64,000 nucleotides of DNA from Candidatus Woesebacteria bacterium RIFCSPHIGHO2_01_FULL_39_32. Its GTDB lineage: Bacteria > Patescibacteriota > Microgenomatia > UBA8517. Within the stretch, counting starts at the first letter, position 1. Every line of letters begins with the position of its first letter. The stretch lies in contig MGGJ01000001.1 in assembly GCA_001792345.1 (NCBI GenBank), forward strand, positions 153,710 to 217,709. The letters are read 5' to 3'. Position numbers and translations under genes: made by a program. Positions 24,795 to 52,788 of the stretch are shown one piece after another. The notes under the pieces are model-generated. The model was not told the origin of the DNA and did no database searches. It saw only the letters and a program-made list of their open reading frames with translations.

Positions 24795-25937
24795 ATGCAT
24801 AAAAAGAATGTTTTAATTACAACCTCCCACTTTCACCCAAATGTAGGTGGGGTTGAAACACATTTGAATGACTTAGTATTGGCATTAAATAAAAGAAACT
24901 GGGAGGTAATCGTTGCCTGTTATAAACCTTTAGCAAGAGATATTAAAATTCCATTTGTTGAGAAGAAAAGTAAGAAACTACTAATTTATCGAATGCCGTG
25001 GGTGGGATTTAATCTGGTACATCTTTTAACCCCTTATCCAGTTCTTGAGTTTTTATATCTTTTCCCAGGACTTTTTCTGGTCAATTTGTATGCATTAATC
25101 AAGCATCCCGAGATTAACGTAATTCATTCTCAGGGATTGGTTCCGGGAGTTGTTGGTATAGTACTCGGAAGGATTTTTAATAAAAGGGTTATTGTGAGCA
25201 CTCATAACTTATATTTTTTCCCCCAAAATGGTTACTACAAGACTTTTTCGGCTTGGATATTATCTTTTGCCGATACTATATTGACGTTATCCAATCAATC
25301 AAAAGATGAGATAGCGAGAATTGGAGTACCAAAAGAGATGATTAAACCCTTTCGTTATTGGCTTAACCTAAAAACATTTAAACCAAAAGATAAAATTATT
25401 GCCAGAGGAAAGCTTGGATTAAATGAAAGCTTCATAGTCTTTTTTGTGGGTAGACTTATTGAAACTAAGGGAGTGAAAATATTAATGCAGGTAAGCAAAA
25501 ATTTAAAAAATGTAACCTTTATTTTTGCTGGATTAGGACCCTTACAGGAAGATTTGAATAAACTTTCTGCTAAACAAAAAAATCTTAAATATGTTGGTTT
25601 ACTTTTTCCCGAGAAAGTGCGTTTATATATGAGTGCATCCGACGTTGTTGCTGTGCCTTCGACCGTCGACGAAGGTTACGGCCGGGTTGCAATGGAGGCG
25701 CTAGCCTGTGGAACGCCAGTCTTTGCTGCCAACAAAGGAGGCTTGAATGAAGTAGTCACTAAAGACGTGGGACTATTAGTAAATCCAAATCCTAAAGATT
25801 ATAACAATGCAGTTAAGTTTGCTTTAACAAATCGGAAAATATTAAGCAATCTTGCTAAAAATACAAGGAGATATGCATTGAGGTACTTTGGCGAGAAAAA
25901 TGTTGAAAAAATTATTGATTCTTATGAAGGTAAATAG
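24795..25937 (+). CDS. glycosyltransferase family 4 (tandem paralog 2)
   Basis: TSHFHPNVGGVETHLNDL and DEGYGRVAMEALACGTPVFAA. Clear paralog of the upstream gene. Confidence 0.7.
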   Translation: MHKKNVLITTSHFHPNVGGVETHLNDLVLALNKRNWEVIVACYKPLARDIKIPFVEKKSKKLLIYRMPWVGFNLVHLLTPYPVLEFLYLFPGLFLVNLYALIKHPEINVIHSQGLVPGVVGIVLGRIFNKRVIVSTHNLYFFPQNGYYKTFSAWILSFADTILTLSNQSKDEIARIGVPKEMIKPFRYWLNLKTFKPKDKIIARGKLGLNESFIVFFVGRLIETKGVKILMQVSKNLKNVTFIFAGLGPLQEDLNKLSAKQKNLKYVGLLFPEKVRLYMSASDVVAVPSTVDEGYGRVAMEALACGTPVFAANKGGLNEVVTKDVGLLVNPNPKDYNNAVKFALTNRKILSNLAKNTRRYALRYFGEKNVEKIIDSYEGK

Positions 25938-27249
25938 CACCTTTCCTCTTAGGTGTTTTGGTTCTTTTCGAATTAGATACAGTTTTTAAAAGTTTTATCT
26001 TTGGAGATCCGTTTTTCGAACGTACTATTTTTCGCCTATTTTTAACAACGCGATTATTTTTGTTATAATTTTTTAGAGCGATAGTTTTTTCACCATCTAC
26101 TGTTTTGATTGTATTTACCCAAACGCGCATGCAATATGCAAGGTGGTGAAAGTATCCTCGAGTTGCCGTATTCCAAACAAACCCGTCAAATTTTTGTACC
26201 GCGTCCTCCATTTGGTAAGCTAGACTCAAGTAACTTTCAGTATAGGTTGAACCATCAAGTTTTACTTCAGTTAGCCATTGAAGTAAGTCTTCTAAAACGG
26301 TAATACAGCCAAGCTCTTGTTGAATGTCTTTGAGATGGTTGTGCGAGTTTCTTATATGTTTTACTATCGGAGACCCGATTCTTATACCATACCCTAAATG
26401 TTTTACACATGTTTGGGCAAAATAGCCACTAAAAATATCTCCATACCGGTCGATTGGTAATCCTGAAAGTGTGTACCCCATTTTTACAAACCAATAAGAG
26501 GGAATTACTGCTTTGTTTAATCCGGTGTTTTGTGTATTTATTGTAGTCCAAGTATTTTTACTAAGCACTACAGAGCGATTGGAGAATGAAGATGCGTATG
26601 GTTTAACCCCGAGCCAAGTAATTGCGTCAACATCGGGTTCTTTTAACCATAGGCCAGTATTGATATGCACATCGACTTCTGAATTTTTTTCTTCAATTTG
26701 ATCTTCAGAAAATCTGGCAAAATAAGGATAGCCTCTGGGGTATACAACTCCAGTATTTCTAAATTTAAGTAAACTGCAGTTATTAAACCAACCGTTGGGA
26801 TTATGAACTACGTTTTGCCTCGTCTCGCCACTACCTACAACAGTATGTTCTTTATAAAAATTAGTGCCCTCAATAGGGTAATTATCGTCATCAATAGAAA
26901 TAACAATTTCATCCCCCGAATCATAAGCCATTAGATAACCGATATTCCTGCGATTATCGGAGTCATAGGGAACAATATTATAAATAGCCCCTAGCTTTTT
27001 TAAATATTCTTCCTGCTCTTCTAGCGTTGGACAATTAATGTTAAACCCGAAATCTTTAAGTATTTGGCATTTCTGGTAAAGTTCATGGGGGCTTTTACGA
27101 TCGGGGATAACAATGATTCTTGTTCGATCTACAACCCCCTCCTCCATCATTTTTTTTGTATAGGAAGTTAAAAAAGACCCATCAAAGATAGAAGTTACAA
27201 TTACAGAAATATTTTTTGGTTTATTTTTCCTTTTGTCTCTTTTTTTCAT
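25912..27249 (-). CDS. reversibly-glycosylated-polypeptide (RGP)/GT75-like protein, UDP-arabinopyranose mutase-like
   Basis: Blocks matching plant RGP/UAM: ISIDDDNYP (DDD), PRGYPYF (cf. RGYPFS), TGLWLKEPDVDAITWL (cf. HGLWLNIPDYDAPTQL), IDRYGDIFSGYFAQTCVKHLGYGIRIGSPIVKH (cf. [33 protein letters not shown]). Extra Lys/Arg-rich N- and C-terminal tails. Confidence 0.55.
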   Translation of the reverse strand: MKKRDKRKNKPKNISVIVTSIFDGSFLTSYTKKMMEEGVVDRTRIIVIPDRKSPHELYQKCQILKDFGFNINCPTLEEQEEYLKKLGAIYNIVPYDSDNRRNIGYLMAYDSGDEIVISIDDDNYPIEGTNFYKEHTVVGSGETRQNVVHNPNGWFNNCSLLKFRNTGVVYPRGYPYFARFSEDQIEEKNSEVDVHINTGLWLKEPDVDAITWLGVKPYASSFSNRSVVLSKNTWTTINTQNTGLNKAVIPSYWFVKMGYTLSGLPIDRYGDIFSGYFAQTCVKHLGYGIRIGSPIVKHIRNSHNHLKDIQQELGCITVLEDLLQWLTEVKLDGSTYTESYLSLAYQMEDAVQKFDGFVWNTATRGYFHHLAYCMRVWVNTIKTVDGEKTIALKNYNKNNRVVKNRRKIVRSKNGSPKIKLLKTVSNSKRTKTPKRKGAIYLHKNQ

Positions 27250-28027: not shown

Positions 28028-29965
28028 ATGTTTTTGGGAAAAAATATAAATGTCAAGTTATTTTTATTTGTGACTTTCGCAGTTACAGTAATTAATTTAA
28101 TAATCCTTCAACCAGTAATTAAATATCAATTAATCGAACTTGCAGATGATTGGATATGGATGGTTTATTACAAATCCTTGTCCCATATGCCTCTTCTAGC
28201 TAAACTTTGGTATATCTGGAAAAAGGTTGGTATTCATGAGAGTGGTTATGCTATATACGTGGGACTTTTAGGGGAGATTCTTGGTATGAATTACCAGGCA
28301 TATAACTACGTGAATATTTTTTTTAAAATACTTTCTGCGGTAACGCTCTTTCCTCTGATCTTAATTGTTTTTAAAAATAGATTATTGGCTACTATTACTA
28401 CTTTTATCTATGGAATTACTTCGGCCTCCACAGGATCTTTGTACTGGATGATGAAAGGAGGAATGTATCTGGGAATTACTTTTATGAATTTATTTTTGTT
28501 ATCCTACTATTTTGCTGTTACAAAGAAAAAAATCTTTTGGCTAATACTTTCCTCGATACTAATATTTATAACGTACATTAGTTCGGCAGTAAGAGTTTAT
28601 CCGGTTTTTCCGATTATTATATTAATAGAAACTATTTGGCTTATTTTTAATCGTTCAAAAGGGGATGGCAAATTCTTACAAATAAAAGTACGTGAGTTAA
28701 AAACTTCAATAATACGAATTGTTGCCTTTTTCCTACCAGTGTTCTTGGTAGCATCACGAGCCCCAGTTTCTCCTCACGGCTTTATCGGAAGGAAAACCGT
28801 AATGCTTTTAACTGACATCAAAAACGGAAATTTACACGATTTGCTTTCTCCTCTTGCTGGAATTGGATCTTCATTTTTACCTAATTATTTTTGGAAATAT
28901 TTTGGAGATATAAACCCGAAAACTTTTGCAAGCTTCGGTAATTATTTAATTTTTCTTTTCAAACGACCACTTCCAATATTCTTTTTAGCCACTATTATTC
29001 TTTCGAGATTAATTTCCAAAAGGCCTAAAAGATTTATTGTTATTGTATTAATTCTTAATTTTATTTTTGAACTTATGTTGTTTCCTATTACTACTTACCA
29101 TTTTAGTATTCCGAAAGAGTTAGTGTTTGAATACGATAGTGTTATTTTCTACTTTATTAAATACCCTACACTAATGGCTGTGTACGTACTTAGCGTTGCT
29201 ATCGCGAGTTTTTTTGAAATGAGGTTTGATGCGAAAAATAAATTACTGTTGACTTTATGGGTAGGTCCTTTATTTTCGGCTATATTTATGTTGTCGATGT
29301 GGATACTAATTGGGTTTCTGGTTAATGCGTATAGTAGCACTGGATATTATTTCGCCATACCCGCAATAGGAATGTCGCTTTTTACATCCTCAATTCTTGT
29401 ATTAATGTATGAAAGATCCAAAGATAGAAAATTATTTAATCTGATACCTCTTGTTGTTATCATTGGGTTCTTAATTTCATTTTATAAAACAAGTAAACTT
29501 GAAATTCACAGAGATTTTACAAGCGATAATCCCGGAAAGATTACAATTCAAGACGTGAATATTTTGCATAGTAATTTATTGGAAGATTTGGGAGACGCCT
29601 CTAAGTCTGGTAATATATTGATATATTTTGAAATTCCTAACGCTACAGCTTCCGGTAATCTGAGACTGGGACTTTTAGGTTTCCCTCAGATGGTTGTTTG
29701 GCAGCGAAACAATGAAGGTATTGGATGTGTGGATTCGTTAACAGATAAAGAAAAACTTCAAATGGCATTTCGATCTGATACGCAGAAACAGGGATTTAAT
29801 TCAAAAGGAGAGTGTGTGTTTAAGACGTCGGTCCCAACAATCAACGAATATGCCGATAAAGAAAATATTTTTTATACAACCAACGATTTTTATGCTTACA
29901 GATTTGATGGTTTAACCCCCATTGATATTCGTGGCGAAGTTCTTGCAGAATTGGCGAATAAATAA
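28028..29965 (+). CDS. large polytopic membrane protein, putative GT-C-fold glycosyltransferase
   Basis: 645 aa with 12 or more TM helices and a C-terminal soluble domain of ~150 aa. Context. Confidence 0.4.
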   Translation: MFLGKNINVKLFLFVTFAVTVINLIILQPVIKYQLIELADDWIWMVYYKSLSHMPLLAKLWYIWKKVGIHESGYAIYVGLLGEILGMNYQAYNYVNIFFKILSAVTLFPLILIVFKNRLLATITTFIYGITSASTGSLYWMMKGGMYLGITFMNLFLLSYYFAVTKKKIFWLILSSILIFITYISSAVRVYPVFPIIILIETIWLIFNRSKGDGKFLQIKVRELKTSIIRIVAFFLPVFLVASRAPVSPHGFIGRKTVMLLTDIKNGNLHDLLSPLAGIGSSFLPNYFWKYFGDINPKTFASFGNYLIFLFKRPLPIFFLATIILSRLISKRPKRFIVIVLILNFIFELMLFPITTYHFSIPKELVFEYDSVIFYFIKYPTLMAVYVLSVAIASFFEMRFDAKNKLLLTLWVGPLFSAIFMLSMWILIGFLVNAYSSTGYYFAIPAIGMSLFTSSILVLMYERSKDRKLFNLIPLVVIIGFLISFYKTSKLEIHRDFTSDNPGKITIQDVNILHSNLLEDLGDASKSGNILIYFEIPNATASGNLRLGLLGFPQMVVWQRNNEGIGCVDSLTDKEKLQMAFRSDTQKQGFNSKGECVFKTSVPTINEYADKENIFYTTNDFYAYRFDGLTPIDIRGEVLAELANK

Positions 29966-33189: not shown

Positions 33190-34842
33190 ATGAATAATTC
33201 GAGAAACAAAATTGTCGCCATTATTCCTGCGGGAGGCATGCCAAATAATATTCTTACTCAGTCTGGCAATCTTCCCGATGCAATGGTTCCGATAAATTGC
33301 AAACCTGTAATTGGCTATATTATTGAAGATCTTATTGAGCGAGGAATAAGAAAAGTATTTGTAATACTAAATTCGTCTGACGAATATACGGAAAGCTACC
33401 TTAAAAATAAGTTTAAAGACAAGCTTTTTATCAACGTAATTTATCAAGATTTCTTAGAAAGAGGTGTGGGATATGCAGTTTATTTGGCCGTGAAAAACAT
33501 TTCAAGAAACGAAAAAGTATTAGTTTATTTAGGGGATACTATTTACAAAGGTAAACTTACGTTTAATGAGAACGCTCTTGTAACGTCAAACATTTATGAA
33601 GAAAGTACCAAATGGTGTTTTGTAGAAAACAAAAAAGAAGGATTATTATTTATAGATAAACCAAAAAATTACCTCGGCGAGGGAAAGGTGTTATGTGGTT
33701 TGTATTTTTTTAAGAAGGGAGCATTGGTTAGAAAGGTAGCGGAGGAGCTAGTAAGAAATATTAAAAAGATCGAAATGAGCGACATTCTAACAATCTATAG
33801 CGAAAATCAAAAATTCAAGTTGGTAAATGCAAAAAGATGGTACGATTGCGGGAACATTGAGAATTATTACAAAGCAAAGATAGATTTTTTAAAAGTAAGG
33901 CACTTTAACAAATTAATATACAATGATCTTTTTGGAAGTATTACAAAATCAAGTAATAACAGCGAGGATTTTAATAAAATTGACGACGAGATTAATTGGT
34001 ATCTAAATTTACCACAAGATCTTCAAATATTTGCTCCAAGACTAATTGATTATAGAAAAACTAAAAGAAACTCGAATTATTCATTGGAATTTTATGGGTA
34101 CCAAAGCTTAGCTGATTTATTTGTTTTTAATAGTTTGGATTTGAGAGTTTGGACTTCAATAATTAAAAAGTTGTTTGAAATAATTGAAGAATTCCGAAAA
34201 TATAAGGTGGACATTCCATATAAGAATTACTATGAAATGTACTACGTTAAAACGATTAAAAGAATAGAAATGTTAGAAAAAAGAAAATATTGGCAAGAAA
34301 CTTTTTCTAAAGAATATGTTTTGATTAACGGAAATAAGATAAAAAATATTAAATATTATTTAGACGCTATTAAGGTTTCTGTTAAGAAGCTTTACACAAA
34401 GAAGGAAATGGCGTTTATACATGGCGATCTTTGTTTGGGAAACATTCTTTTTGACCCAACCAATAAGATTTTTAAGTTTATCGATCCAAGGGGAAGTTTT
34501 GGAAAACAATCTGTTTATGGTGATTTGAAATATGATCTTGGGAAGTTAAGACATAGTTTCCACGGGCTTTATGATTTTATTACAAGCGATCTTTTTACAA
34601 TTAAAAAAGATGGGTTTAGATATTTATTTAAAATCTATTCTGAAGGGCGCCATAAGGATATTGGTAATATTTTTGACAAAGAGCTTATCAAAAATGGTTT
34701 TAATCTCGAGAAAATAAAACTCATTGAGGCATTACTCTTTGCTTCAATGATACCAATACACAAAGATTCACTTGAAAGGCAGAAAGCAATGTATCTCACT
34801 TCAGCGATTTTGTTAAACGAAATAGATTTCACAGCTTTATAG
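33190..34842 (+). CDS. bifunctional sugar-phosphate (or phosphocholine) nucleotidyltransferase / APH-like small-molecule kinase
   Basis: N-terminal IVAIIPAGGMPNN...LPDAMVPINCKPVIGYIIEDL matches the NTP-transferase fold. C-terminal IHGDLCLGNILFD...FIDPRG is the Brenner/APH-choline-kinase catalytic motif. Confidence 0.65.
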   Translation: MNNSRNKIVAIIPAGGMPNNILTQSGNLPDAMVPINCKPVIGYIIEDLIERGIRKVFVILNSSDEYTESYLKNKFKDKLFINVIYQDFLERGVGYAVYLAVKNISRNEKVLVYLGDTIYKGKLTFNENALVTSNIYEESTKWCFVENKKEGLLFIDKPKNYLGEGKVLCGLYFFKKGALVRKVAEELVRNIKKIEMSDILTIYSENQKFKLVNAKRWYDCGNIENYYKAKIDFLKVRHFNKLIYNDLFGSITKSSNNSEDFNKIDDEINWYLNLPQDLQIFAPRLIDYRKTKRNSNYSLEFYGYQSLADLFVFNSLDLRVWTSIIKKLFEIIEEFRKYKVDIPYKNYYEMYYVKTIKRIEMLEKRKYWQETFSKEYVLINGNKIKNIKYYLDAIKVSVKKLYTKKEMAFIHGDLCLGNILFDPTNKIFKFIDPRGSFGKQSVYGDLKYDLGKLRHSFHGLYDFITSDLFTIKKDGFRYLFKIYSEGRHKDIGNIFDKELIKNGFNLEKIKLIEALLFASMIPIHKDSLERQKAMYLTSAILLNEIDFTAL

Positions 34843-34843
34843 T

Positions 34844-35605
34844 ATGAAGCTAACAATTAACAATTCTTTTAAACAGGGTGTAAACATTTTAATACCCATG
34901 TCTGGAGCTGGAAGCAGATTCGTAAAAGCTGGCCATACAGCCCCAAAACCATTAATAAAAGTAAAAGGTAAAACGATGATCGAATGGGCGATGAAATCGT
35001 TTAATTTTTTAAATAACATACCTAGGTATCGAATTATTTTTATAATCAGAAGATCCGATATTGATAATTATAAGATCGATAAAACTCTAAAAAGTTTATT
35101 CGGAAAAGAAATTATACTGGTAGTAAAAGATAGTAATGAAGTTAAAGGTCAGGCATACGATTGCTTACTTGCAAGAAACTACATCGACACCCAAAACCCA
35201 CTTTTTATATATAATTGTGATACATATTCGCTTTCAAATGTTTGGGATGTTGTTTTAAAGTGGGATCCGGATGGTGTAATACCATATTTTAAAAGCAATA
35301 ATCCTCGATACAGCTTTATTAAAATTGATGAAAAAGGAAATATCATACAAACTACAGAGAAAGTTCCCATATCGATGATGGCTTCTTCCGGAATGTATTA
35401 CTTTAAAATGGGCCATGATTTTTGTGAAGCAGCTGAGGAAATGATATCCGAGAATGAGTCTTACAACAAAGAATACTATGTAATACCTACTTATAATCGA
35501 TTGATAAAAAAAGGGAAAATAGTTAAACCAGCAAAAGCAACTCTTAATTGGATTCTTGGAACACCAGAAGAAATGGAGCGCTTTATCCAATTTTACAAGA
35601 GATAA
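34844..35605 (+). CDS. nucleotidyltransferase (sugar-phosphate/LicC-like NTP transferase fold)
   Basis: LIPMSGAGSRFVKAGHTAPKPLIKVKGKTMIEW, the G-X-G-X-R...K-P-L signature. Confidence 0.6.
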   Translation: MKLTINNSFKQGVNILIPMSGAGSRFVKAGHTAPKPLIKVKGKTMIEWAMKSFNFLNNIPRYRIIFIIRRSDIDNYKIDKTLKSLFGKEIILVVKDSNEVKGQAYDCLLARNYIDTQNPLFIYNCDTYSLSNVWDVVLKWDPDGVIPYFKSNNPRYSFIKIDEKGNIIQTTEKVPISMMASSGMYYFKMGHDFCEAAEEMISENESYNKEYYVIPTYNRLIKKGKIVKPAKATLNWILGTPEEMERFIQFYKR

Positions 35606-35653
35606 ATTTGAAAACTGCTGTTCGATCGAGTAAATTGATATATAATCTTCATC

Positions 35654-36037
35654 ATGAGAATATGTATAGACTTAGATGGGGTAATTTGTGAAGTAAGGAG
35701 GAAGAATCAATCATACGAGGATGTAAAACCCTTACCAGGAGCAATCGAAAAAATTCAAGAATTAAAAAGTAAAGGTCACTATATTATTATTTCTACCTCT
35801 CGGCACATGAAGACTACAGACGGCAATGTAAATAAAATATTAGCAAAAGTAGGAGAAATAACACTTACTTGGTTAAGAAAACATAAGATTCCATTTGACG
35901 AGATAAATTTTGGTAAACCTTACGCTCATATTTATATCGATGATAAAGCTGTTCGCTTTAGTGGATGGAAAAAAATAAGAGGAGATGGGGGTAACCTCCC
36001 TCTTAAAAAGGAAGATAAAGAGTTTAAAGTCAAATGA
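35654..36037 (+). CDS. HAD-superfamily-like small phosphatase
   Basis: Begins MRICIDLDGVIC (DxDG motif). 127 aa, downstream Lys and YIDD (motif IV-like). Confidence 0.4.
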   Translation: MRICIDLDGVICEVRRKNQSYEDVKPLPGAIEKIQELKSKGHYIIISTSRHMKTTDGNVNKILAKVGEITLTWLRKHKIPFDEINFGKPYAHIYIDDKAVRFSGWKKIRGDGGNLPLKKEDKEFKVK

Positions 36038-37797
36038 TAGTCGTAGGTTTTTACAAAGGACACAACGCGACAGCCTGTGTTCTTAAAGACGGAAAGATAT
36101 TAGCTAGCGCCAGCGAGGAACGTTTTGTACGGATAAAAAACGTTGATACTTTCCCAACGAACTCAATTAAATTTTGCCTCGATTTTATAGGCGCAAAAGT
36201 TGCCGATGTTGATCTTTTTGTTAGAACCTACAAACACGCTGAAGGCTTTGTTACTTCTAAGGGTAAAACAGTAATGACAAAACCACTAGAGTATCAAAGA
36301 TGGCTTGCAAAAACCTTTGATCGGTTACTCTTTTACTTACCGAGTTTAAATTCACTGACCAGAGAGACATATGCATACTTCTCAAAATTTCTTTTGACTC
36401 CTTACTATCAATCGAAATTTAGAACCAATATGGCCAACTTCCTGAAAGTGGATCCCCAAAAAATTATATTTGCAGATCATCACTCGTGCCACGCATATGC
36501 TCCGTATTATGGATTTATTACTAATGAAGAAAAGAAACAAGATTATTTAGTGATTACACTAGACGGGGAAGGAGACGAAGACTGCGGTGGCATTTGGCTT
36601 GTAAAATCCGGTAAGTGGGAAAAAATTGCAACTGTATCATATGGTGATTCTATCGCGGCATTTTACGGTTACATTACAAGTTACTTGGGAATGAAAATAA
36701 ATGAACACGAATATAAGGTTATGGGGTTAGCCCCTTATGTTTCCGAATACGAAATTAAAAAAGTATATCCAATATTTAAAGACCTTTTTTGGATAGATGA
36801 TAATCTTGTAATGCACTCAAAGATTCATTCCGGATCTTACCCCTATTATTTGGAGAAATATCTTAGGGGAATGCGTTTTGATGGCATTGCCGGCGCAGCA
36901 CAATTATTAGCAGAAAATGTTGCAATAGACCTTGTTAAAAAGGCAATACGAAAAACCGGTATCAAAAACATTATACTTTCCGGAGGGTTTTTCATGAATG
37001 TAAAGGTAAATCAAAAAATTGCGAAACTTTCAGAAGTAAAAAGATTGTTTGTCTGTCCATCAGCATCTGATGAATCGAGTGTATTCGGTGCTGCATATTT
37101 TGGCTTCAAATATCTTTGCAAAGAGAAAGGAATAAATTTCAGACCTGAAACCCTCGACAATTTATATCTTGGTCCTAATTTTGAAGACAAAGGATTGAAA
37201 AAGGCAATGATTAAAGCAAAGATATCAAAAAAATATAAAATTAATAAATATAAAAATATAGAAAAAGTTATCGCTGATCTTTTGGCTGAAGGTAAAATTG
37301 TCGGACGATTTACAGGACGTATGGAATGGGGAGCAAGAGCTTTAGGAAATAGATCAATTCTGATGGACCCGAGAAGTAAAGATAAAATTCGTGAACTTAA
37401 CGATCAGGTTAAATCAAGAGACTTTTGGATGCCTTTTGCAGCAACAATCATAGATGAATATAAAACCAAATATCTTAGAAATACTGATAAATCTGATGGT
37501 AGATTTATGGTAATGGCCTATGATACAACGGACCTTGGTAAGAAGAATTTAAGCGCGGCGATTCATCCATATGATGAGACTTGTAGACCGCAAATATTAA
37601 GTAGAATCGACAATCCTAAATACTATAAACTGATAAAATATTTTCAGGGCAAAACTGGCGTTGGTGCAGTTCTTAATACATCGTTCAATTACCATGGAGA
37701 ACCAATTGTTTGTACGCCGGACGATGCACTACATACATTTGAAGTTACAGGTTTAAAATATTTAGCATTGGAAAATTGCTTAATTGCCAAAGAATAA
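36034..37797 (+). CDS. NodU/CmcH-family carbamoyltransferase
   Basis: N-terminal ILGFYKGHNATACVLKDGKILASASEERFVRIKN is the ASKHA-like Carbam_trans_N signature. 587 aa, with a C-terminal YrdC/Kae1-like region. Confidence 0.75.
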   Translation: MIVVGFYKGHNATACVLKDGKILASASEERFVRIKNVDTFPTNSIKFCLDFIGAKVADVDLFVRTYKHAEGFVTSKGKTVMTKPLEYQRWLAKTFDRLLFYLPSLNSLTRETYAYFSKFLLTPYYQSKFRTNMANFLKVDPQKIIFADHHSCHAYAPYYGFITNEEKKQDYLVITLDGEGDEDCGGIWLVKSGKWEKIATVSYGDSIAAFYGYITSYLGMKINEHEYKVMGLAPYVSEYEIKKVYPIFKDLFWIDDNLVMHSKIHSGSYPYYLEKYLRGMRFDGIAGAAQLLAENVAIDLVKKAIRKTGIKNIILSGGFFMNVKVNQKIAKLSEVKRLFVCPSASDESSVFGAAYFGFKYLCKEKGINFRPETLDNLYLGPNFEDKGLKKAMIKAKISKKYKINKYKNIEKVIADLLAEGKIVGRFTGRMEWGARALGNRSILMDPRSKDKIRELNDQVKSRDFWMPFAATIIDEYKTKYLRNTDKSDGRFMVMAYDTTDLGKKNLSAAIHPYDETCRPQILSRIDNPKYYKLIKYFQGKTGVGAVLNTSFNYHGEPIVCTPDDALHTFEVTGLKYLALENCLIAKE

Positions 37798-37800
37798 AGT

Positions 37801-38883
37801 ATGAGACCATTAGTTTCATTGCTTATACTAACTTATAATAGGCCTGATCTTCTCAAGGCCTGTCTGAAAAGTGCCGTAGCATCAGATTATCCAAATCTCC
37901 AATTTATTATTTCCGATAACGGACAAATGGCGACAACACAGAATCTCATCAGGCGTGAATTTTCAGATGTTTTCGTAAAAGTTGTTTCTGCTGGCAGGAA
38001 TGTCGGTCTTACTGGTGGTTTTAATTACGGATTTAAATATTGTCGTGGTAAATATGTAATGCTTCTTTCCAACGATACAAAAATAGACAAAGGTGCGATT
38101 TCTAATATGGTGAATATGGTGGAAAAAGATAAGAAAATAGGCATCGTAGCACCAAAAGTAATACAGATGAAAAATAGTAATTATTTACACAGCGTTGGTA
38201 GTTTTTTTACTTATTCTGGAATTCTTTATCATTACGGTCTATCAAAAATCAAAAATAATCCGTTGTACGAGATACCCTATTACACCTTTAGTGCTAACGG
38301 TTCAGGGTTTATGATAAGACGGGATATCGTTAAAAAAACTGGGCTTTTTGAACAAGAATTTTTTGTTGCATATGATGAAAGCGATCTTTGTCATAGAGTC
38401 TGGCTTTCCGGACATACTATTGTCTATTGTCCAAAAGCAGAGCTTTTGCATCTTTGGGGTGCAACAATAGGGGGTACCGAAAAAGAAGAAAATCCGAAAG
38501 TATGGTTTCTCAATGATAGAAATAAAATAACTTCTTTTATAGTAAATCTTTCTTTAGCTAATTTATTGATTGTACTCGCTATTTTTAATAGCATTTTGAT
38601 TACGTGGTTTTTTGTAAATATTGTAAGAGGTAGAACTAAAACCGCAATCATGCTTCCCCAAGCCTATTGGTGGCACATAATTAATTTCAGAAAGACGCTC
38701 ATGAAAAGAAAGAAGGTTCAAACAAAAATTAGGAAAGTAAGTGACGAAGAAATATTTAAAAAGTGTATGCTAAATCCAAAAGTTAAGTATTATTATCTGC
38801 TTTACAGATATGGAGTAATAGAGGGACTAAAAAAATACAAAGATACTAAATTACCAGACAGGATATTATATTTATCCGAATGA
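37801..38883 (+). CDS. glycosyltransferase family 2 with C-terminal TM helices
   Basis: VSLLILTYNRPDLLKACL...FIISDNG; DES (DxD-like) motif; hydrophobic C-terminal segments. Confidence 0.7.
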   Translation: MRPLVSLLILTYNRPDLLKACLKSAVASDYPNLQFIISDNGQMATTQNLIRREFSDVFVKVVSAGRNVGLTGGFNYGFKYCRGKYVMLLSNDTKIDKGAISNMVNMVEKDKKIGIVAPKVIQMKNSNYLHSVGSFFTYSGILYHYGLSKIKNNPLYEIPYYTFSANGSGFMIRRDIVKKTGLFEQEFFVAYDESDLCHRVWLSGHTIVYCPKAELLHLWGATIGGTEKEENPKVWFLNDRNKITSFIVNLSLANLLIVLAIFNSILITWFFVNIVRGRTKTAIMLPQAYWWHIINFRKTLMKRKKVQTKIRKVSDEEIFKKCMLNPKVKYYYLLYRYGVIEGLKKYKDTKLPDRILYLSE

Positions 38884-41051
38884 AGCATTACCTAATTCTT
38901 TTTGTTATATGCATAAGCTTAGTTCTCATCTGGTTTAGTAAAGGCTTAATCTTTGCAGGAGGAGAAGAGGGCATGCCCTTTTATAATTTGGAGTTGACTT
39001 ACCGCAACTATTCCTATGTTTGGAAAGATGCCGAAGGGGGAATTAGTAATTATTCAGATATATTAAGAGTTCCTAGTTTTTATATTCTTCAAAAATTATC
39101 GAGCATTGGCCTATCCTCGGTTTTAATTCAAGGAACATTTTTTTTGGCTTTAATGCTAATTGGTACTTTCTCAGTATTTTTTTTATTACAGGAAACCGTA
39201 GTTAAGGGTGCTTTAAAAGTAACTAAAGATACACCGTCATACAAAGATATTTCCTTAATTGGGTCTATCTTCTATCTTCTTAACCCTTTTGCTATGACTC
39301 AAGTTTGGGGAAGGGGCCTTTATATGCAGTATTATCCCTTTGCACTTATACCACTTTTTTTGCTTTTGTTTATTTTAGCATTGAAAACAAGAAATCTAAT
39401 TTTTGTAAGTTTGGCATTAGTTTCTTCGTTTATATTGGCAGGATCTTATGGACATTTAAGTTATGTGATTTCGCTTTGGGGCATAATTTTTGCATATCTA
39501 ATTTACTTTTGTATAAATAATAAAAGTAAAGAAGAGAGAACATTTTCGGTTAAAATATTTTTGCTCTTTGTGGTTGGTTGGATTTTTACAAATCTTTGGT
39601 GGATAATGCCATTTTCTTCTTCAATCAACACTTTTGCCCAAAATTACAGCGACATAGAACATAGTTTGGGTACTTTAATTGGAAACAGTCGAGAAATTCC
39701 ATTAAACGGAGTTTTGAGGTTAATGCATAACGGATTTGTCTATAAATGGAAAATTTACGGGGAGTCTTATTTAAATTTATTTTTTAAACTCATAAGCTGG
39801 TTTATTCCAATTATTTCGCTTTTTGCATTAAGGTCCTGTAAGAATATAAAATCGCTGAACTTTTATTTAGTACTCTTTTTGATCACCTTGTTTATAAGTT
39901 TGGGTTCTAATCCGCCATTGGGATGGTTATTCATTATCTTATTTAAGGCAATACCTCAAATGGTTCTTTACAGAAATCCATTTGAAAAAATTGGTATTTT
40001 ACTTACAATCGCATATGCTCCTTTATTCGCAGTAGGACTTGTCGAACTTTCTAAATTCATATCCAATAAGTTGAAGAAAAGCTTAGATTTTTTAAGAATA
40101 ACTCATATTTCTAATTTATTTATTCTTATTTCAATGATTTTAATTTTTGGTATTCATGCGTGGCCTATGTGGAAAGGAGTTTTTGCTGGTGGATATGTAA
40201 CTAATGTATGGATTAATGTTCCCAAATATTACAAACAAGCAAATAATTGGTTAAACGAAGAAACTGGAGAATTTAATCTTATTCACTTTCCCTTAGCTCC
40301 TGGTGACGGCATGAAATTTATTTGGCCGAATTACTTTCAAGGCGTAGTACCTTATGATTTTTTGTTTGATCGACCTTCGATATCTAAAAACACTTTCTTT
40401 AATAAAATTTATTATAACGTGTTGCTAGAGAGATTTGGAAAACTTGAGAAAGGGGCGTTTGGACCAGATCCAGATATTTCAAATTCTCAACTGAAAACTA
40501 AAGATTTATATGAAGGTCTACAAAAACTAAACGTAAGATATATTTTACTTCATAAAGATGTAGATCCTGTTATTGGAAATTTGGGCGATTACAGGTTGTA
40601 CGAAGAGATTCTTAAGAAAGAGGAAAATATCACAAAAATAATTAACTTCGGAGAAATTGATATTTATGAGGTAACCCCGCCAGAGAAAGTTGATTTAATT
40701 TTTACAAGTCAGGGAAAAGTTGATTTCGAGAAAATAAATCCGACAGAATATGTTGCTACATTAAAGGGTGTTAAGAAAGACGATAAATTAGTTTTGTTAA
40801 CTTTATATGATCCGAACTGGAGTTTATATGTGAATGGTATGGTTGCGGCTGATCATAATCGTTATTTTTCTTGGGCTAACTCTTGGACTTTAGATAAGCT
40901 TGGTGATTATTCGGTAACTATTAAGTATAAACCGCAAGAAAATGTGCAAAAAGGTTTCAGAATTTCTATTTTCTTGTTGAGCCTTTTATTGTTTACGACA
41001 TTTATTTACAGATGGAAAGAGAGAAGCGATAAATTACCTAAAAATGTTTGA
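38880..41051 (+). CDS. giant polytopic membrane protein, GT-C-like (paralog A; AftD/YfhO-like by architecture)
   Basis: 723 aa with ~12 N-terminal TM helices, a soluble domain and a C-terminal TM. Shares the motifs AGGEEGMPFYN, GSNPPLGW and YRNPFEKIGI with the 49252 and 53286 proteins. Confidence 0.5.
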   Translation: MKHYLILFVICISLVLIWFSKGLIFAGGEEGMPFYNLELTYRNYSYVWKDAEGGISNYSDILRVPSFYILQKLSSIGLSSVLIQGTFFLALMLIGTFSVFFLLQETVVKGALKVTKDTPSYKDISLIGSIFYLLNPFAMTQVWGRGLYMQYYPFALIPLFLLLFILALKTRNLIFVSLALVSSFILAGSYGHLSYVISLWGIIFAYLIYFCINNKSKEERTFSVKIFLLFVVGWIFTNLWWIMPFSSSINTFAQNYSDIEHSLGTLIGNSREIPLNGVLRLMHNGFVYKWKIYGESYLNLFFKLISWFIPIISLFALRSCKNIKSLNFYLVLFLITLFISLGSNPPLGWLFIILFKAIPQMVLYRNPFEKIGILLTIAYAPLFAVGLVELSKFISNKLKKSLDFLRITHISNLFILISMILIFGIHAWPMWKGVFAGGYVTNVWINVPKYYKQANNWLNEETGEFNLIHFPLAPGDGMKFIWPNYFQGVVPYDFLFDRPSISKNTFFNKIYYNVLLERFGKLEKGAFGPDPDISNSQLKTKDLYEGLQKLNVRYILLHKDVDPVIGNLGDYRLYEEILKKEENITKIINFGEIDIYEVTPPEKVDLIFTSQGKVDFEKINPTEYVATLKGVKKDDKLVLLTLYDPNWSLYVNGMVAADHNRYFSWANSWTLDKLGDYSVTIKYKPQENVQKGFRISIFLLSLLLFTTFIYRWKERSDKLPKNV

Positions 41052-42303
41052 TATAAAACAAATCCGTATCTTTGCTCTAGCTGCTTATGGAAAAGGACTT
41101 TCTGGGGGAGATAGGATTTTTATTGAATTTGCCAGACGTTGGAGTAAAAATTTTCCTGTGGAAATTTATGTTTGGAAAGAAGGAGCCAAAATGTTGGAAA
41201 GACAACATCTGGGTATTTTCAATTCACAATTTTCACTTTTTAATGCAAATAAAGATTACCGAAATTTAAAAGTTCACGTTTCGAAATTAAAAAACCTATG
41301 TAAATTAGGATTCTTATTTTGCTACCTTACCAGAATTATTGAAGGAATTCGTTTAGGACTTTCTTTAAAACTAATCACCAATCACCAATCACCAATTACT
41401 ATATACTCTGCATCAGAATTTTGGATGGATTCACTCCCCGCTTTCATATTAAAACTCAGATATCCGAAGATAACTTGGGCCGCATCGTGGTATCAAACTG
41501 CTCCCAACCCATTTCATGGATATTTAGAAAATGGACAACGTAGAAATAAATATTTTTTTAGCAGTCTCTTCTATTGGCTAATGCAACTACCGATAAAGCC
41601 GCTTATTTCAAGCTTTGCTGACTATGTTTTAGTAAATAACGAGGAAGAACGAAAGCAATTTTCCGATTTGAACAAAAAGGGTAGAATGATAGTGGTTTTG
41701 GGCGCGGTTCCACTTGAAGAAATTAATAAATTTTTAATTACTAATTCCAAACTATTAACTACTAAAGAATATGACGCTGTCTTTCAAGGACGCTTACACG
41801 CGCAAAAGGGAGTGGTTGAATTAATCGACATTTGGAAAAAAGTGGTTGAGATAAAACCGTTAGCAAAATTGGCGATGATTGGAGATGGTCCCTTGATGGG
41901 AAAGGTAAAGAAACGAATAACTATGAATAAACTAACTAATAACATTAAAGTTTTTGGGTATGTTTTCGACGGGCCCAAAAAATATAAAATATTTTCCAAA
42001 AGTAAGATTGTCGTGCATCCCGCATTTTATGATTCAGGTGGAATGGCATCTGCAGAAGCAATGGCTTTTGGATTACCATGCGTCGGCTTTAACTTAAAAG
42101 CGTATAAATCTTATTATCCTCAGGGTATGGTTAAGGTAGATATTGGAAACACAAATGCTTTTGCAAAAAAAATAATGGAATTATTAGAAAATTATTCTTT
42201 GCGTATAAAAATAGGTAGAGAAGCTAAGTACATGATAGAAGAAAACTGGTCGTGGGAAAAAAGAGCTAACGAAGTTTTGGAACGAATAACTACAAATAAA
42301 TGA
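41044..42303 (+). CDS. glycosyltransferase family 4-like
   Basis: C-terminal HPAFYDSGGMASAEAMAFGLPCVGFN. Contains a 3x heptanucleotide repeat at 41374..41394. Confidence 0.6.
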   Translation: MFDIKQIRIFALAAYGKGLSGGDRIFIEFARRWSKNFPVEIYVWKEGAKMLERQHLGIFNSQFSLFNANKDYRNLKVHVSKLKNLCKLGFLFCYLTRIIEGIRLGLSLKLITNHQSPITIYSASEFWMDSLPAFILKLRYPKITWAASWYQTAPNPFHGYLENGQRRNKYFFSSLFYWLMQLPIKPLISSFADYVLVNNEEERKQFSDLNKKGRMIVVLGAVPLEEINKFLITNSKLLTTKEYDAVFQGRLHAQKGVVELIDIWKKVVEIKPLAKLAMIGDGPLMGKVKKRITMNKLTNNIKVFGYVFDGPKKYKIFSKSKIVVHPAFYDSGGMASAEAMAFGLPCVGFNLKAYKSYYPQGMVKVDIGNTNAFAKKIMELLENYSLRIKIGREAKYMIEENWSWEKRANEVLERITTNK

Positions 42304-43250
42304 GACGAATAAAACATTTTGTATCTATTACTGATTTAACTAAAAAAGAAATTAATCTTGTCCTTCAAATTTCCTCAAGTCTCAAAAGACAATTAAAGAA
42401 AAAAGGGAGCAACAAAGATTATTTAAAAAATAAAGTATTGGGAATGATTTTTGAAAAACCATCTCTGCGTACAAGAGTTTCATTTGAGGCAGGAATGACT
42501 CAAATGGGAGGACATGCAATTTATCTTGCGCCCGGGGATATTGATTTGGGTAAAAGAGAGCCTGTGAAAGATGTTTCTCAGGTTTTATCAAGGATGGTTG
42601 ATATTATTATGGCTCGAACTTTTCTTCATACTACCATAGAAGAGCTAGCTAAGTATTCAAGTGTTCCTGTTATTAATGCTTTGTCGGAACAAGAGCATCC
42701 TTGTCAGATTTTAGCTGATTTATTAACTATAAAAGAAAAGAAAGGAAAATTAAAAGGTATTAAGTTAGCATTTGTTGGTGATGGCGAAAATAATGTAACT
42801 CATTCTTTAGCTTTAGCCTCAGCAATTTTTGGAATGGATTTTCGGGTAGCAACACCTCCTGGTTTTGAAATGCAAAGCATCATTTTAGAAAAGGCAAAAG
42901 CAATTGCAAGTAAGAGCGGTGGACTAATTATAGAGACAGATAAACCCGAAGAAGCTGTAAAAGGAGTCGACATTGTCTACACAGATACATGGGTTTCTAT
43001 GGGTGATGAGTCTGAGAAAGACAAGCGTATAAAAGCTTTTAAAGGATATCAAGTAAACACTAGATTGATGAATTTTGCAAAAAAGGATGCAATATTTATG
43101 CATGATATGCCTGCCTATAGGGGTTATGAGGTTAGTGAAGAAGTTATTGAAGGAAAGCAATCTATAATAATCAATCAAGCAGAGAATAGACTACATGTTC
43201 AGAAGGGTTTGATTTGTTTTCTCCTACGTACTACCATCAATACATCATGA
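42300..43250 (+). CDS. divergent ornithine/aspartate carbamoyltransferase-family protein (OTCase-like fold)
   Basis: Collinear with OTCase: PSLRTRVSFE (canonical STRTR), HPCQ (HPTQ), DTWVSMG (DxxxSMG), FMHDMPA (canonical HCLP). 316 aa, translationally coupled inside the GT cluster. Confidence 0.65.
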   Translation: MRRIKHFVSITDLTKKEINLVLQISSSLKRQLKKKGSNKDYLKNKVLGMIFEKPSLRTRVSFEAGMTQMGGHAIYLAPGDIDLGKREPVKDVSQVLSRMVDIIMARTFLHTTIEELAKYSSVPVINALSEQEHPCQILADLLTIKEKKGKLKGIKLAFVGDGENNVTHSLALASAIFGMDFRVATPPGFEMQSIILEKAKAIASKSGGLIIETDKPEEAVKGVDIVYTDTWVSMGDESEKDKRIKAFKGYQVNTRLMNFAKKDAIFMHDMPAYRGYEVSEEVIEGKQSIIINQAENRLHVQKGLICFLLRTTINTS

Positions 43251-48527: not shown

Positions 48528-49220
48528 ATGTATATGTTGAAATCAAAAAAATCATCACCTGGCACAAATTTTAATCATTACCTATTTACTCTGAAATTAT
48601 GGCTAGACTCACGCGTTGAACCAATATGTAGAGTTATCGATAAATCGGCCGAAAGTATTTTAGACGTAGGTTGTGGTCAAGGTTATCCGATGAGGCTCAT
48701 CAGATTAGTAATGGAACCGAAGAAAGTTGTAGGAGTTGACCTTTTTAACGAATATATTGAAGAAGCAAAATCCGCGCATTTACATGATAAGTATGTCATA
48801 TCAGATATTCGGAAGTTGAAATTTCCAAAAAAAAGTTTCGATGTCGTTCTTGCATCGCAAGTTATTGAACACTTGCCTAAAAAGGATGCAAGAAAATTTA
48901 TTAAAGATTTAGAGCGGATTGCAAAAAAGCAAGTAATTATTGCAACACCAATAGGGGAGATGTATCATCCTGCGGTAGATGATAATGAATTGCAACTTCA
49001 TTTATCAAATTACTATCCTGAATATTTTGAAAAGTTAGGATACAGGATTCTAAAATATGGTAGAAAATCTTTATTGGGGGACCACGGATTAGTTCATAAA
49101 ATTCCTAATGGGATATTGAGAAAATGCCTTTTTCTTTTCAATATTCTTATAAGTCCTTTCTATTATGTCTTCCAACCGATTGCGGATTATTATTTTGTGG
49201 CCTACAAGACGTTTAAATAA
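48528..49220 (+). CDS. class-I SAM-dependent methyltransferase
   Basis: ILDVGCGQGYPMRL; DVVLASQVIEHL; IIATP. Confidence 0.65.
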   Translation: MYMLKSKKSSPGTNFNHYLFTLKLWLDSRVEPICRVIDKSAESILDVGCGQGYPMRLIRLVMEPKKVVGVDLFNEYIEEAKSAHLHDKYVISDIRKLKFPKKSFDVVLASQVIEHLPKKDARKFIKDLERIAKKQVIIATPIGEMYHPAVDDNELQLHLSNYYPEYFEKLGYRILKYGRKSLLGDHGLVHKIPNGILRKCLFLFNILISPFYYVFQPIADYYFVAYKTFK

Positions 49221-49251
49221 ATTATTTTACCCATTTAGTAAATTCAAATAT

Positions 49252-52200: not shown

Positions 52201-52788
52201 ACTGTTGTTAATCCAGACCCGTCATCCGACACGATGACACTAATATTTAGCGCAATCCCTTGGAATAATTGTACAAAGATTTTTTACAAAAACCCAAAGA
52301 AATGTAGCGATGTTTCGATAAGTAAGACCTATGAAAGACCAACAAAGGTGGAAATTACAAATCTGCAAATCCACCCCAGATTTTCAAGAGAACTTTTTGT
52401 ACTAAGAGTCGATGCGGTAGATGAAAAAGTATCACCAAAAATTTCTTTTACTAAAAAGAGTCACACTCATTATAAAGTGGAGGTTCGTGATTCGGAGAAG
52501 CCCTTTGTTTTGGTCTTTTCTGAATTATTTGACAAGGGATGGAAACTTTACCTAAATGGCGATAGTAAGCGGTATCCCGAGAATAACCATTTTTTGGCCA
52601 ATAGTTATGCAAACGGTTGGTTAATAGAAAATGAGGGAGACTTTAATTTGGAACTTAAATTTGTGCCCGATAAATTTAAAGAAATGGGATTGTATTTATC
52701 CTTTTTCGTACTTGGGCTGATTTTTCTTATTACGCTGTTATTGTCCGTTAATGTTTTTTTGTCTAAAAGATTTAATAAAGGATTATGA
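49252..52788 (+). CDS. giant polytopic membrane protein, GT-C-like (paralog B)
   Basis: The ORF-track start of 49165 overlaps the upstream gene; Met30 (MNKKIFILLLL) at 49252 fits a signal/TM start. ~1180 aa. Motifs LGGGESGVPFYN, KGNSPPLGE, FRNPFEKLGI. C-terminal TM. Confidence 0.5.
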   Translation: MNKKIFILLLLSSVLLTTILFKDKTILGGGESGVPFYNITRMFKDSSSSWLDGLLGSYIPQSVANYPYLKIFSFLEVQGINGYVLQALFTFIALLISLVFFFLLTKEVFSNYPNSAYLFSSFFYLFNFYSAMNIWNRFLLNFLLFYSVLPMFLWLYMRFLRSRNFVYLGLFLMLSFIFSYAFSSPGHIMIFWFLLLFISLFELMKDKKKVAQVKNFVITLMLWLLVNFWWILQQAAYAISESFKSISTEYFSDVGNTIGFSFLSNVLGKFENLYLLKHGLFYNQEYDFILKWPLIYKKPLLLIVEWMASLYILYWAINNRKRLSVVFSLGLLLIGFILAKGNSPPLGEVFDFFFQRFSFVQFFRNPFEKLGIIPTMGFSLMIGPSLSDLAKKLSRQKPFLRVFIPLVSFTYIVVILGFPFWSGLVFTGSQAPLNDPEVGLRVEVPSYYKDADNWLSLEDKDTRFMTFPLGGEGIQYLWPKGYLGVEESAILFENANISSVLAFPYYDKIASNLQKLFTKNIDFYKIASLLNARYLLFRPDIEFKNSGMKDPAYIDNLFEERVSNEKANISFASQFGPLKFYKLDNKVTLPKIYAANNYVNGGSGADIEQFLLSGAEVGDVMYNSGWPVRNKLDANTSFYVSKNKAIFYLPGPQYPLFVDAPYIFPYVSHLPSSPIYSLLIIKENLQRNLYSDKESKLRWDLLTLGKRLIEVRNALSAGDEKGAIKSLQIYRKNLASVVSDIDLVSKSLKKPGEQVWNEKMLTEIFSSHLFLFNDFEKSTLNSDGSITDLKKQLLLSVSKLKILPYYYPIVSEDFPLESRVVYGVEIDSSGEYDVIFPKSIFFPEYFGINQRINIQIDDVVYSTQIGIDNNKVYFGKYYLSEGYHEISFNQFSKINLIDENLTSFELNSIHGEDSINIPIKTYDAYSQYEISFDYLIHYGNGPVLQVSLNNDKIIKKDGVETEQYYFEKYLPPDDYYFIKRPYSTVVNPDPSSDTMTLIFSAIPWNNCTKIFYKNPKKCSDVSISKTYERPTKVEITNLQIHPRFSRELFVLRVDAVDEKVSPKISFTKKSHTHYKVEVRDSEKPFVLVFSELFDKGWKLYLNGDSKRYPENNHFLANSYANGWLIENEGDFNLELKFVPDKFKEMGLYLSFFVLGLIFLITLLLSVNVFLSKRFNKGL

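Follow-up and report, generated by a model that had tools for sequence, protein, structure and literature searches.

A stretch of 64,000 nucleotides (nt) from Candidatus Woesebacteria bacterium RIFCSPHIGHO2_01_FULL_39_32 (contig MGGJ01000001.1, positions 153,710-217,709), here called the window, contains a new member of the already known kfoE/VC0231 gene cassette, now from the Candidate Phyla Radiation (CPR), joined by an accessory carbamoyltransferase gene. The cassette encodes three proteins: a 550 amino acid (aa) fusion of an N-terminal nucleotidyltransferase (NT)-like domain with a C-terminal kinase domain, a stand-alone nucleotidyltransferase termed NT2, and a small phosphatase of the haloacid dehalogenase (HAD) superfamily. 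We propose that the window genes at 33190-36037 are the Woesebacteria copy of this cassette and supply the nucleotide-activated sugar for a surface glycan, most likely a nucleoside diphosphate (NDP)-fructofuranose; for this reading as a whole we put the chances at about even. Taken by itself, the cassette probably yields an activated donor of a fructose-like sugar, and fructose as the sugar in Woesebacteria is the least certain element of the proposal. Fructose is proposed because of two orthologous cassettes: the one of Escherichia coli K4 is genetically tied to fructosylation, and the one of Vibrio cholerae belongs to the core cluster of a fructose-containing lipopolysaccharide.

The pathway would proceed in four steps. 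The kinase would take a sugar phosphate of central metabolism and phosphorylate its anomeric hydroxyl, the likeliest case being the conversion of fructose-6-phosphate to fructose-2,6-bisphosphate. The HAD phosphatase would strip the distal phosphate and leave fructose-2-phosphate, from which NT2 and a nucleoside triphosphate (NTP) would form NDP-fructofuranose. Finally, one of the many neighbouring glycosyltransferases would move the sugar onto the glycan. The order of the steps and the role of the N-terminal domain are what we infer. An earlier note on this DNA had already placed four open reading frames (ORFs) here, and their coordinates, lengths and domain classes were all confirmed. It had also read them as a route from kinase through NDP-activation to tailoring; that general logic is borne out by synteny, by gene fusions and by the homology to K4 and V. 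cholerae, whereas the LicA/LicC-type analogies which the note attached to it find no support.

Counterparts in Vibrio cholerae and Escherichia coli K4 and the conserved gene trio

In the lipopolysaccharide (LPS)-core (wav) cluster of V. cholerae the genes are ordered WaaA - HAD - 527 aa - 247 aa (NT2) - WavE - KdkA. Published quantitative PCR primers map exactly, those for VC0231 to the 527-aa ORF and those for VC0229 to the WavE ORF, and the cassette is thus VC0232-VC0231-VC0230. These are homologues of all three cassette proteins of the window. VC0231 (527 aa) matches the fusion protein over the whole length (BLASTP, 27% identity, E 9e-47), VC0230 (247 aa) matches NT2 (31% identity, E 3e-34), and VC0232 matches the HAD phosphatase (40% identity, E 3e-26). 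The O1/O139 core of V. cholerae carries beta-D-fructofuranose. According to one publication, VC0229 and VC0231 are involved in the adsorption of phage VP3 and so act on an LPS-core phage receptor (PMC10458087).

When the V. cholerae cassette was compared by blastn with complete E. coli genomes, 124 genomes matched, inside group-2 kps loci. Region 2 of these loci is organised as in K4 and reads galE (kfoA) - 546 aa (kfoB) - 686-aa family 2 glycosyltransferase (GT2; kfoC) - IS3-family element - 477 aa (kfoD), followed by HAD - 522 aa - 243-aa NT2 - ugd (kfoF) - GT2 (kfoG). The 522-aa ORF is kfoE because the lambda-Red homology arms published for the kfoE deletion (Badri et al., PMC7925653, Supplementary Table 3) match exactly at its borders. 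KfoE and the window fusion protein are 29% identical across 442 aa (E 2e-40), KfoE and VC0231 46%; the K4 NT2 (orf1) is 30% identical to the window NT2 (E 1e-24), and the K4 HAD protein (orf3) is 35% identical to its window equivalent. Among 89 positions conserved to at least 90% in the environmental family, 59 are identical in both KfoE and VC0231, the kinase signature block included. The N-terminal domain of these two proteins is more degenerate, so that Pfam NTP_transferase no longer matches. KfoD displays no homology to NT2 or WavE.

Deletion of kfoE in K4 leads to non-fructosylated chondroitin, and KfoE has been called a fructosyltransferase (PMC7925653, PMC8858990, PMC10609508). The kfoE-dependent residue is fructose, glycosidically linked at O3 of glucuronic acid (GlcA) (PMC7925653). 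This loss of fructose is a genetic phenotype known from E. coli K4 only.

Two side observations concern the E. coli locus. RefSeq/PGAP names the NT2 of the K4 locus a 'glycosyltransferase family 2 protein' (L086, 9820-10551, NZ_CP116106.1; L085, 15820-16529). This label is a probable misannotation because the protein has nucleotidyltransferase motifs and is 47-52% identical to VC0230 / 4EVW. In strain E686 the NT2 gene and galE are frameshifted and kfoC is split, i.e., this locus is decaying.

How far does the cassette extend beyond these two species? A scan of one genome per species gave at least 579 stretches encoding relatives, of which 80 were examined together with two further loci, 82 in all. 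The genes for the fusion protein, the HAD phosphatase and NT2 are adjacent in about 60 of the 82 loci (tblastn). The loci without the full trio are mostly cut-off contigs or Myxococcota loci lacking a HAD match. Bacterial carriers belong to CPR, Bacteroidota, Ignavibacteria, Planctomycetota, Myxococcota, Cyanobacteriota, Gastranaerophilales, Verrucomicrobiota, Proteobacteria, Actinomycetota and Spirochaetota, archaeal carriers to Thaumarchaeota, Woesearchaeota, Micrarchaeota and Methanosarcinales. Overall, dozens of phyla have the trio, and among its cultured carriers are Sporocytophaga myxococcoides, Photobacterium damselae, Zobellella denitrificans and Nitrosopumilus. The conserved unit consists of three genes, fusion, mini-HAD and NT2, and not of four. 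The window fusion protein shares in this association, being encoded next to a mini-HAD and a canonical NT2. GT4 and GT2 enzymes, AsnB and Wzx recur in the neighbourhood of the cassette, as do a hexapeptide acetyltransferase (24 loci) and WavE (11 loci).

The cassette proteins are also found joined in single polypeptides. HAD-NT2 polypeptides exist in six CPR and Thaumarchaeota loci (L002, L004, L005, L020, L046, L058). Three-domain fusions are P0480 (NT2 + NT-like + kinase) and P0452 (NT-like + kinase + NT2); P0378 joins a HAD-type UMPH-1 domain, i.e., a HAD nucleotidase, to the kinase, and P0406 is a fusion protein with a C-terminal TIR domain. In two clusters, P0479 and P0476, RibB (DHBP synthase) precedes the NT-like and kinase domains; neither the window nor any of the 82 loci has a RibB gene. 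RibB acts on ribulose-5-phosphate, a ketose-5-phosphate. Its fusions fit a ketose-phosphate input of the cassette, yet they warn that the substrates might differ. Further fusions of the fusion protein with NT2, suspected from tblastn spans in L023, L034 and L066, were not confirmed by an ORF scan.

The fusion protein, NT2 and the phosphatase

The 550-aa protein is a single ORF without an internal stop, and a two-domain layout of about 540 aa is usual among hundreds of homologues; the earlier claim of a true fusion stands. When the kinase domain alone was searched with phmmer against 1.84 billion representatives, 659 clusters (at 50% identity) were retrieved at E<=1e-30 and 2,280 at E<=1e-10, and it was nearly always located at residues ~230-540 of a ~540-aa protein. 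The window protein has the layout of the KfoE/VC0231 family (~520-560 aa, two domains) and its kinase signature (HGDxxxxN, IDPRG).

The catalytic loop of the window fusion protein reads FIHGDLCLGN (H411-G-D413-xxxx-N418). K253, E267, H411, D413, N418 and D432 (IDPRG) are invariant across 41 aligned homologues; the earlier note had pointed out the loop as an intact HGDLxxxN. HxDxxxxN and DPRG are present in all 72 fusion ORFs of the related loci. The window protein also contains a family-specific block, GDxxYDxAKLxHS...YD, which shows little or no variation in the 41 homologues, in KfoE and in VC0231. Both E. coli KfoE and V. cholerae VC0231 retain all catalytic and signature residues of the kinase. 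These residues predict that the kinase domain is active.

The kinase domain matches known families only distantly. Pfam APH hits the window fusion weakly at residues 400-454 (19.5 bits, cutoff 23.2) and matches 28 of the 41 family members. Pfam Choline_kinase (PF01633) has no match to the window protein at E<=0.01 and matches one of the 41 homologues (E 0.004). AlphaFold2 models are confident (full-length pLDDT 92, pTM 0.90; kinase domain alone pLDDT 94.8). The kinase domain was modelled apart because Foldseek gave only NT-fold matches with the full-length model. Alone, it shows the APH/eukaryotic-like-kinase (ELK) fold (E ~1e-5 to 1e-6) and is equidistant (TM ~0.5) from APH(3'), 5-methylthioribose (MTR) kinase, FN3K and APH(2''). 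Because there is no close solved relative, an assignment to the choline kinase or to the anomeric-sugar kinase clade cannot be derived from structure.

These comparisons bear on the pathways to which the earlier note had assigned the genes, i.e., LicA/LicC (phosphocholine), AmgK/MurU (salvage of N-acetylmuramic acid/N-acetylglucosamine, MurNAc/GlcNAc) and HddA/HddC (heptose). The same pair of folds, an APH-like kinase and a nucleotidyltransferase, recommends them, as do weak NCBIfam matches of HddC to the N-terminal domain (38.5 bits) and of MurU NF045761 to 37 residues of NT2 (18.1 bits). These scores are far under the cutoffs of 300 and 250, respectively, and no AmgK-type model is among the NCBIfam matches. 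HddA, moreover, is a GHMP kinase and not APH-like. Beyond the near-absence of Choline_kinase matches, Foldseek favours neither the choline-kinase nor the anomeric-hexosamine-kinase clades; none of the three pathways needs a fused or adjacent HAD phosphatase, and the orthologous cassettes, one in a capsule locus and one in an LPS-core locus, are linked with fructosylation and core structure. Membership in any of these pathways is hardly credible.

The N-terminal domain presents a different picture. Pfam NTP_transferase covers residues 10-232 (E 2e-14), Foldseek groups the domain with RmlA/GalU folds, and the closest sequence match in the PDB is LicC (1jyk). When the domain is aligned to LicC without gaps, GMPNNI...LPDAMV stands in place of GLGTRL...TPKALV, i.e., the catalytic Arg is replaced by Asn and the Lys by Asp: the domain reads PAGGMPNN...LPDAMVPI where canonical enzymes have GxGTRL...PK. 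Family-wide, Arg is found in no sequence at the first position; at the second, 31 of 43 sequences have Asp and a single one has Lys. Only one of the 72 fusion ORFs of related loci contains a GxGxR motif. With both the Arg of GxGxR and the Lys of PK missing, the domain is not a canonical nucleotidyltransferase; the earlier note had taken it for a working one and NT2 for the second, when in fact NT2 is the canonical enzyme of the pair. Other residues were retained. D116-T117 and D219 are invariant in the family alignment and K157 is nearly so; in canonical RmlA-type nucleotidyltransferases the equivalents bind the metal and the sugar phosphate. Because only the residues which hold the triphosphate/pyrophosphate (PPi) were lost, and by analogy with degenerate relatives, the domain is probably a non-catalytic module which binds a sugar phosphate or an NDP-sugar and may serve regulation, channelling or a partnership with NT2. 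PDB profile matches of the domain include GMPPA and eIF2B gamma chains.

The same conservation could be read differently. Since the kfoE deletion does not separate donor synthesis from transfer, the N-terminal domain could itself be catalytic, either as a fructosyl (glycosyl) transferase which uses the NDP-sugar made by NT2 or as a second nucleotidyltransferase with unusual residues. The complete loss of fructosylation in the mutant and the name given to KfoE agree with a transferase, the retained D116-T117, K157 and D219 would suit an active site, NT and GT-A folds are related, and the domain is the most divergent part between the clades, as expected if acceptors differ. What renders this distinctly unlikely is that the domain matches no glycosyltransferase family, that a dedicated WavE stands beside the cassette in V. 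cholerae and 11 other loci and KfoD accompanies it in K4, and that one transferase conserved over such different acceptors would be unusual. We know of no precedent for an RmlA-fold domain working as a glycosyltransferase. We retain the binding module as the more plausible role of this domain.

NT2 is the canonical enzyme. Its motifs, SGAGSRF...APKPLI, contain both the canonical GxGxR(L/F/M) and the PK lysine, Pfam NTP_transferase matches (E 1.5e-6), and PDB 4EVW is found with E 1e-26. Among the NT2-like ORFs of related loci GxGxR is present in 45 of 54 and PK in 50 of 54.

The HAD phosphatase, 127 aa in length, has legible motifs I-III (DLDGV, STSR, GKP...IDD) which align to 1xpj of V. cholerae (E 3e-19). 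It is the best conserved protein of the cassette, with 50-60% identity across phyla. A protein of Candidatus Woesebacteria bacterium RIFCSPHIGHO2_01_FULL_39_32 matches the window HAD with 100% identity. Its best NCBIfam model is TIGR01689, EcbF-BcbF 'capsule biosynthesis phosphatase', named after the capsule genes bcbF and ecbF of P. multocida serogroups B and E. The window protein scores 86.2 bits, under the trusted cutoff of 162, whereas the K4 and V. cholerae HAD proteins score above it with 193 and 228 bits, respectively. By sequence the window HAD is a distant relative of the EcbF-BcbF clade in the same synteny. For HAD and NT2 the closest PDB sequences, 1XPJ and 4EVW, are orphan entries from V. 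cholerae structural genomics, and the cassette gives both a functional context.

One might then ask whether the product is a sugar nucleotide at all. An NDP-activated non-glycosidic alcohol, comparable to CDP-glycerol, CDP-ribitol or CDP-choline, could be transferred as a phosphodiester-linked substituent. LicC as the closest solved sequence relative of the N-terminal domain and weak IspD / NTP_transf_3 matches of NT2 point in this direction, and RibB fusions would supply 3,4-dihydroxy-2-butanone-4-phosphate, which is incapable of forming a glycoside. Against this, the kfoE-dependent fructose of K4 is linked glycosidically, and phosphotransferases of the LicD, TagF and Stealth types are absent among the recurrent neighbours of related loci. 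We consider an activated alcohol very unlikely and an activated sugar the better description of the product.

The carbamoyltransferase and the surrounding glycan island

The four co-directional ORFs fill 33190-37797 on the + strand, with spacings of 1 nt and 48 nt and, finally, a 4-nt overlap between the start of the carbamoyltransferase gene and the stop of the HAD gene, which indicates translational coupling. The coordinates are collected in Table 1.

Table 1. Features of the cassette and of the adjoining carbamoyltransferase gene in the window.
Feature	Position	Strand	Basis
Whole fusion ORF (NT-like + kinase), 550 aa	33190-34842	+	
Fusion protein, N-terminal NT-fold domain, residues ~1-234	33190..33891	+	Pfam, LicC alignment, Foldseek
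Fusion protein, C-terminal APH/eukaryotic-like-kinase-fold domain, residues ~235-550	33892..34842	+	Motifs, AlphaFold2, Foldseek
NT2, stand-alone canonical sugar-phosphate nucleotidyltransferase, 253 aa	34844-35605	+	Motifs, Pfam, PDB 4EVW
Mini HAD-superfamily phosphatase, 127 aa	35654-36037	+	HAD motifs, TIGR01689 (below cutoff), PDB 1xpj
NodU/CmcH/TobZ-type O-carbamoyltransferase, 587 aa	36034-37797	+	Pfam Carbam_trans_N + Carbam_trans_C

The 587-aa protein matches Carbam_trans_N (109.9 bits, E 2e-31, cutoff 24) and Carbam_trans_C (196.9 bits, E 2e-58, cutoff 27), and its PDB relatives are NovN (9s2t, E 3e-59), TobZ (E 2e-51) and GdmN. The NodU equivalog NF041651 was reached with just 75.9 bits versus a cutoff of 1000. 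By these matches the protein can be placed in the carbamoyltransferase superfamily, but not as NodU itself. The earlier note had counted it as the fourth member of one module. For fusion, NT2 and HAD the module holds, with HAD as a core step. As a core part the carbamoyltransferase was rejected on synteny: because a homologue occurs within ~8 kb of the cassette in just five of the 82 loci (L014, L041, L048, L055, L076), it is an accessory. In this genome the coupled NodU-type enzyme would O-carbamoylate the sugar or the glycan as a local extra. A further gene with a carbamoyl connection is situated 4.5 kb downstream amid glycosyltransferases (42300-43250, +); it encodes an ornithine/aspartate carbamoyltransferase (OTCase; both Pfam domains strong), and the other 82 loci have none in the vicinity of the cassette. 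A tie of this gene to carbamoyl-phosphate supply for O-carbamoylation is speculation.

The four ORFs are embedded in a glycan island which occupies about 55 kb of the window and contains at least 15 glycosyltransferases, two Wzx-like flippases, GT-C proteins, several methyltransferases and AsnB. The two Polysacc_synt (Wzx-like flippase) genes (11128-12396 and 56114-57415, both +) are separated by 44 kb of this co-directional island, which may assemble more than one glycan. An RGP-family protein (reversibly glycosylated polypeptide / UDP-arabinopyranose-mutase type, PF03214) is encoded at 25912-27249 (-), and a 723-aa GT-C protein at 38880-41051 (+) matches the N-terminal domain of the AftD arabinofuranosyltransferase. 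Together they hint at arabinofuranose chemistry within the same island. Four big ORFs of the island, 28028-29965, 49165-52788, 53286-56090 and 13189-15213 (+), have no Pfam or NCBIfam match; they encode 645, 1207, 934 and 674 aa, respectively. Close to the start of the window, at 1480-3027 (+), a single 515-aa ORF combines an N-terminal vitamin K epoxide reductase (VKOR) domain with a dihydroorotate dehydrogenase domain, which may link quinone/disulfide redox chemistry to pyrimidine synthesis.

Weighing the proposed pathway and comparison with known systems

Several points weigh against the production of NDP-fructofuranose by the window cassette. For every cassette member the substrate, the nucleotide and the order of steps are predictions. 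The phenotype of the kfoE deletion would, as discussed, fit lost transfer as well as lost donor synthesis, and in the literature KfoE goes by the name of fructosyltransferase. A literature search for fructose in the core of V. cholerae gave no usable text. No WavE or KfoD homologue is encoded in the window. In eight Myxococcota loci (L040, L043, L047, L048, L056, L066, L071, L072), where the fusion gene adjoins NT2, tblastn found no mini-HAD; in this clade a gene located elsewhere may provide the phosphatase, or a different pathway may operate. The RibB fusions could point to a substrate other than a hexose. Lastly, the fructosylation of Campylobacter jejuni HS:1 depends on an 849-aa HddD-like protein, HS1.08, and no such cassette was reported (PMC7901785, PMC11924219). 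Because C. jejuni uses a different protein, the cassette is not universal for fructosylation. The identical length of 849 aa in P0480 is a coincidence: P0480 is the high-GC NT2 + NT-like + kinase protein mentioned above, whereas HS1.08 is annotated as an HddD-like transferase.

A final point against fructose in Woesebacteria leads to an alternative of its own. Because the window proteins share just 27-40% identity with their E. coli and V. cholerae orthologues, their specificity may differ. The same kinase/phosphatase/nucleotidyltransferase logic could serve another sugar here, i.e., a pentose-5-phosphate, a heptose-7-phosphate, another ketose, or a free sugar which is salvaged with the HAD phosphatase in a proofreading role. 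The position of the window HAD below the TIGR01689 cutoff, with the E. coli and V. cholerae proteins above, agrees with this, as do the RGP-like gene and the AftD-like GT-C in the same island, and the RibB-fused variants suggest substrate diversity. Conversely, the signature residues of the kinase are common to the environmental clade and KfoE/VC0231, the high identity of the HAD phosphatase across phyla argues for one conserved substrate, and a GmhA/SIS isomerase is not among the recurrent neighbours of related loci. A different sugar is unlikely in our view, and we retain NDP-fructofuranose as the preferred product.

The proposal can be extended to the family. For the way in which bacteria attach fructofuranose to capsules and LPS, as in E. 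coli K4 and in the V. cholerae core, the sole handle is kfoE, labelled a fructosyltransferase. In the literature searched, the coverage of which is incomplete, no bacterial pathway for UDP-, CDP-, GDP- or CMP-fructose or for fructose 2-phosphate was found. As a tentative possibility we suggest that the cassette is the missing route to a nucleotide-activated fructofuranose, or to ketofuranose donors in general, and that KfoE is the committed kinase with a pseudo-nucleotidyltransferase sensor domain and not a fructosyltransferase. Recasting KfoE as a kinase fused to a degenerate nucleotidyltransferase, encoded beside the HAD phosphatase and the canonical NT2, converts a gene label into a testable three-enzyme pathway, and it flags KfoE as a transferase, beside the E. 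coli NT2 as a family 2 glycosyltransferase, as probable misannotations. The fructosylated chondroitin of K4 is a commercial chondroitin precursor. For the CPR organism of the window the genes indicate an elaborate glycan, possibly ketose-containing and O-carbamoylated. If the proposal is true, surface glycans decorated with ketoses would be common in bacteria and archaea alike, considering the hundreds of kinase clusters and genomic stretches enumerated above.

The comparison with known systems begins with the nearest ones. In E. coli K4, orf3 (HAD) - kfoE - orf1 (NT2) encode the same three proteins as the window, translationally coupled and in a surface-polysaccharide locus. The order differs, HAD-fusion-NT2 in K4 and fusion-NT2-HAD in the window, and so does the company: the K4 cassette is accompanied by KfoD and has no carbamoyltransferase, whereas the window has a carbamoyltransferase and no KfoD. 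The V. cholerae trio resides within the core-oligosaccharide cluster and adjoins WavE, which has no equivalent in the window. The carbamoyltransferase shares both Carbam_trans domains, Kae1-like and YrdC-like, with NodU, CmcH, TobZ, NovN and GdmN; unlike these entries it sits in a CPR glycan island. For the N-terminal domain of the fusion protein, GMPPA, GalF and eIF2B gamma/epsilon are likewise RmlA folds in which catalytic residues were lost and the binding of ligands or partners was kept. They are separate regulatory subunits, whereas the NT-like domain of the window is fused to a kinase; the analogy is inferential.

LicA/LicC and AmgK/MurU also pair a kinase of the APH/choline-kinase fold with an RmlA-fold nucleotidyltransferase. 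They have no phosphatase step, their nucleotidyltransferases are canonical, and their substrates are free choline or a hexosamine, in all of which the proposed window pathway differs. The chemical logic is shared with the routes to ADP- and GDP-heptose (HldE/GmhB; HddA/GmhB/HddC), in which a kinase, a HAD phosphatase and a nucleotidyltransferase act in sequence. As in our proposal, a sugar-n-phosphate is converted by an anomeric kinase to a bisphosphate, by a HAD phosphatase to the sugar-1-phosphate and by a nucleotidyltransferase to the activated sugar. The parts are different: the heptose kinases are ribokinase-like or GHMP enzymes, whereas the window kinase is APH-like and comes without GmhA, and the NCBIfam score of GmhB, like that of HddC, is far under its cutoff. 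Yet HldE of the ADP-heptose pathway also fuses a kinase to a nucleotidyltransferase around a separate HAD step.

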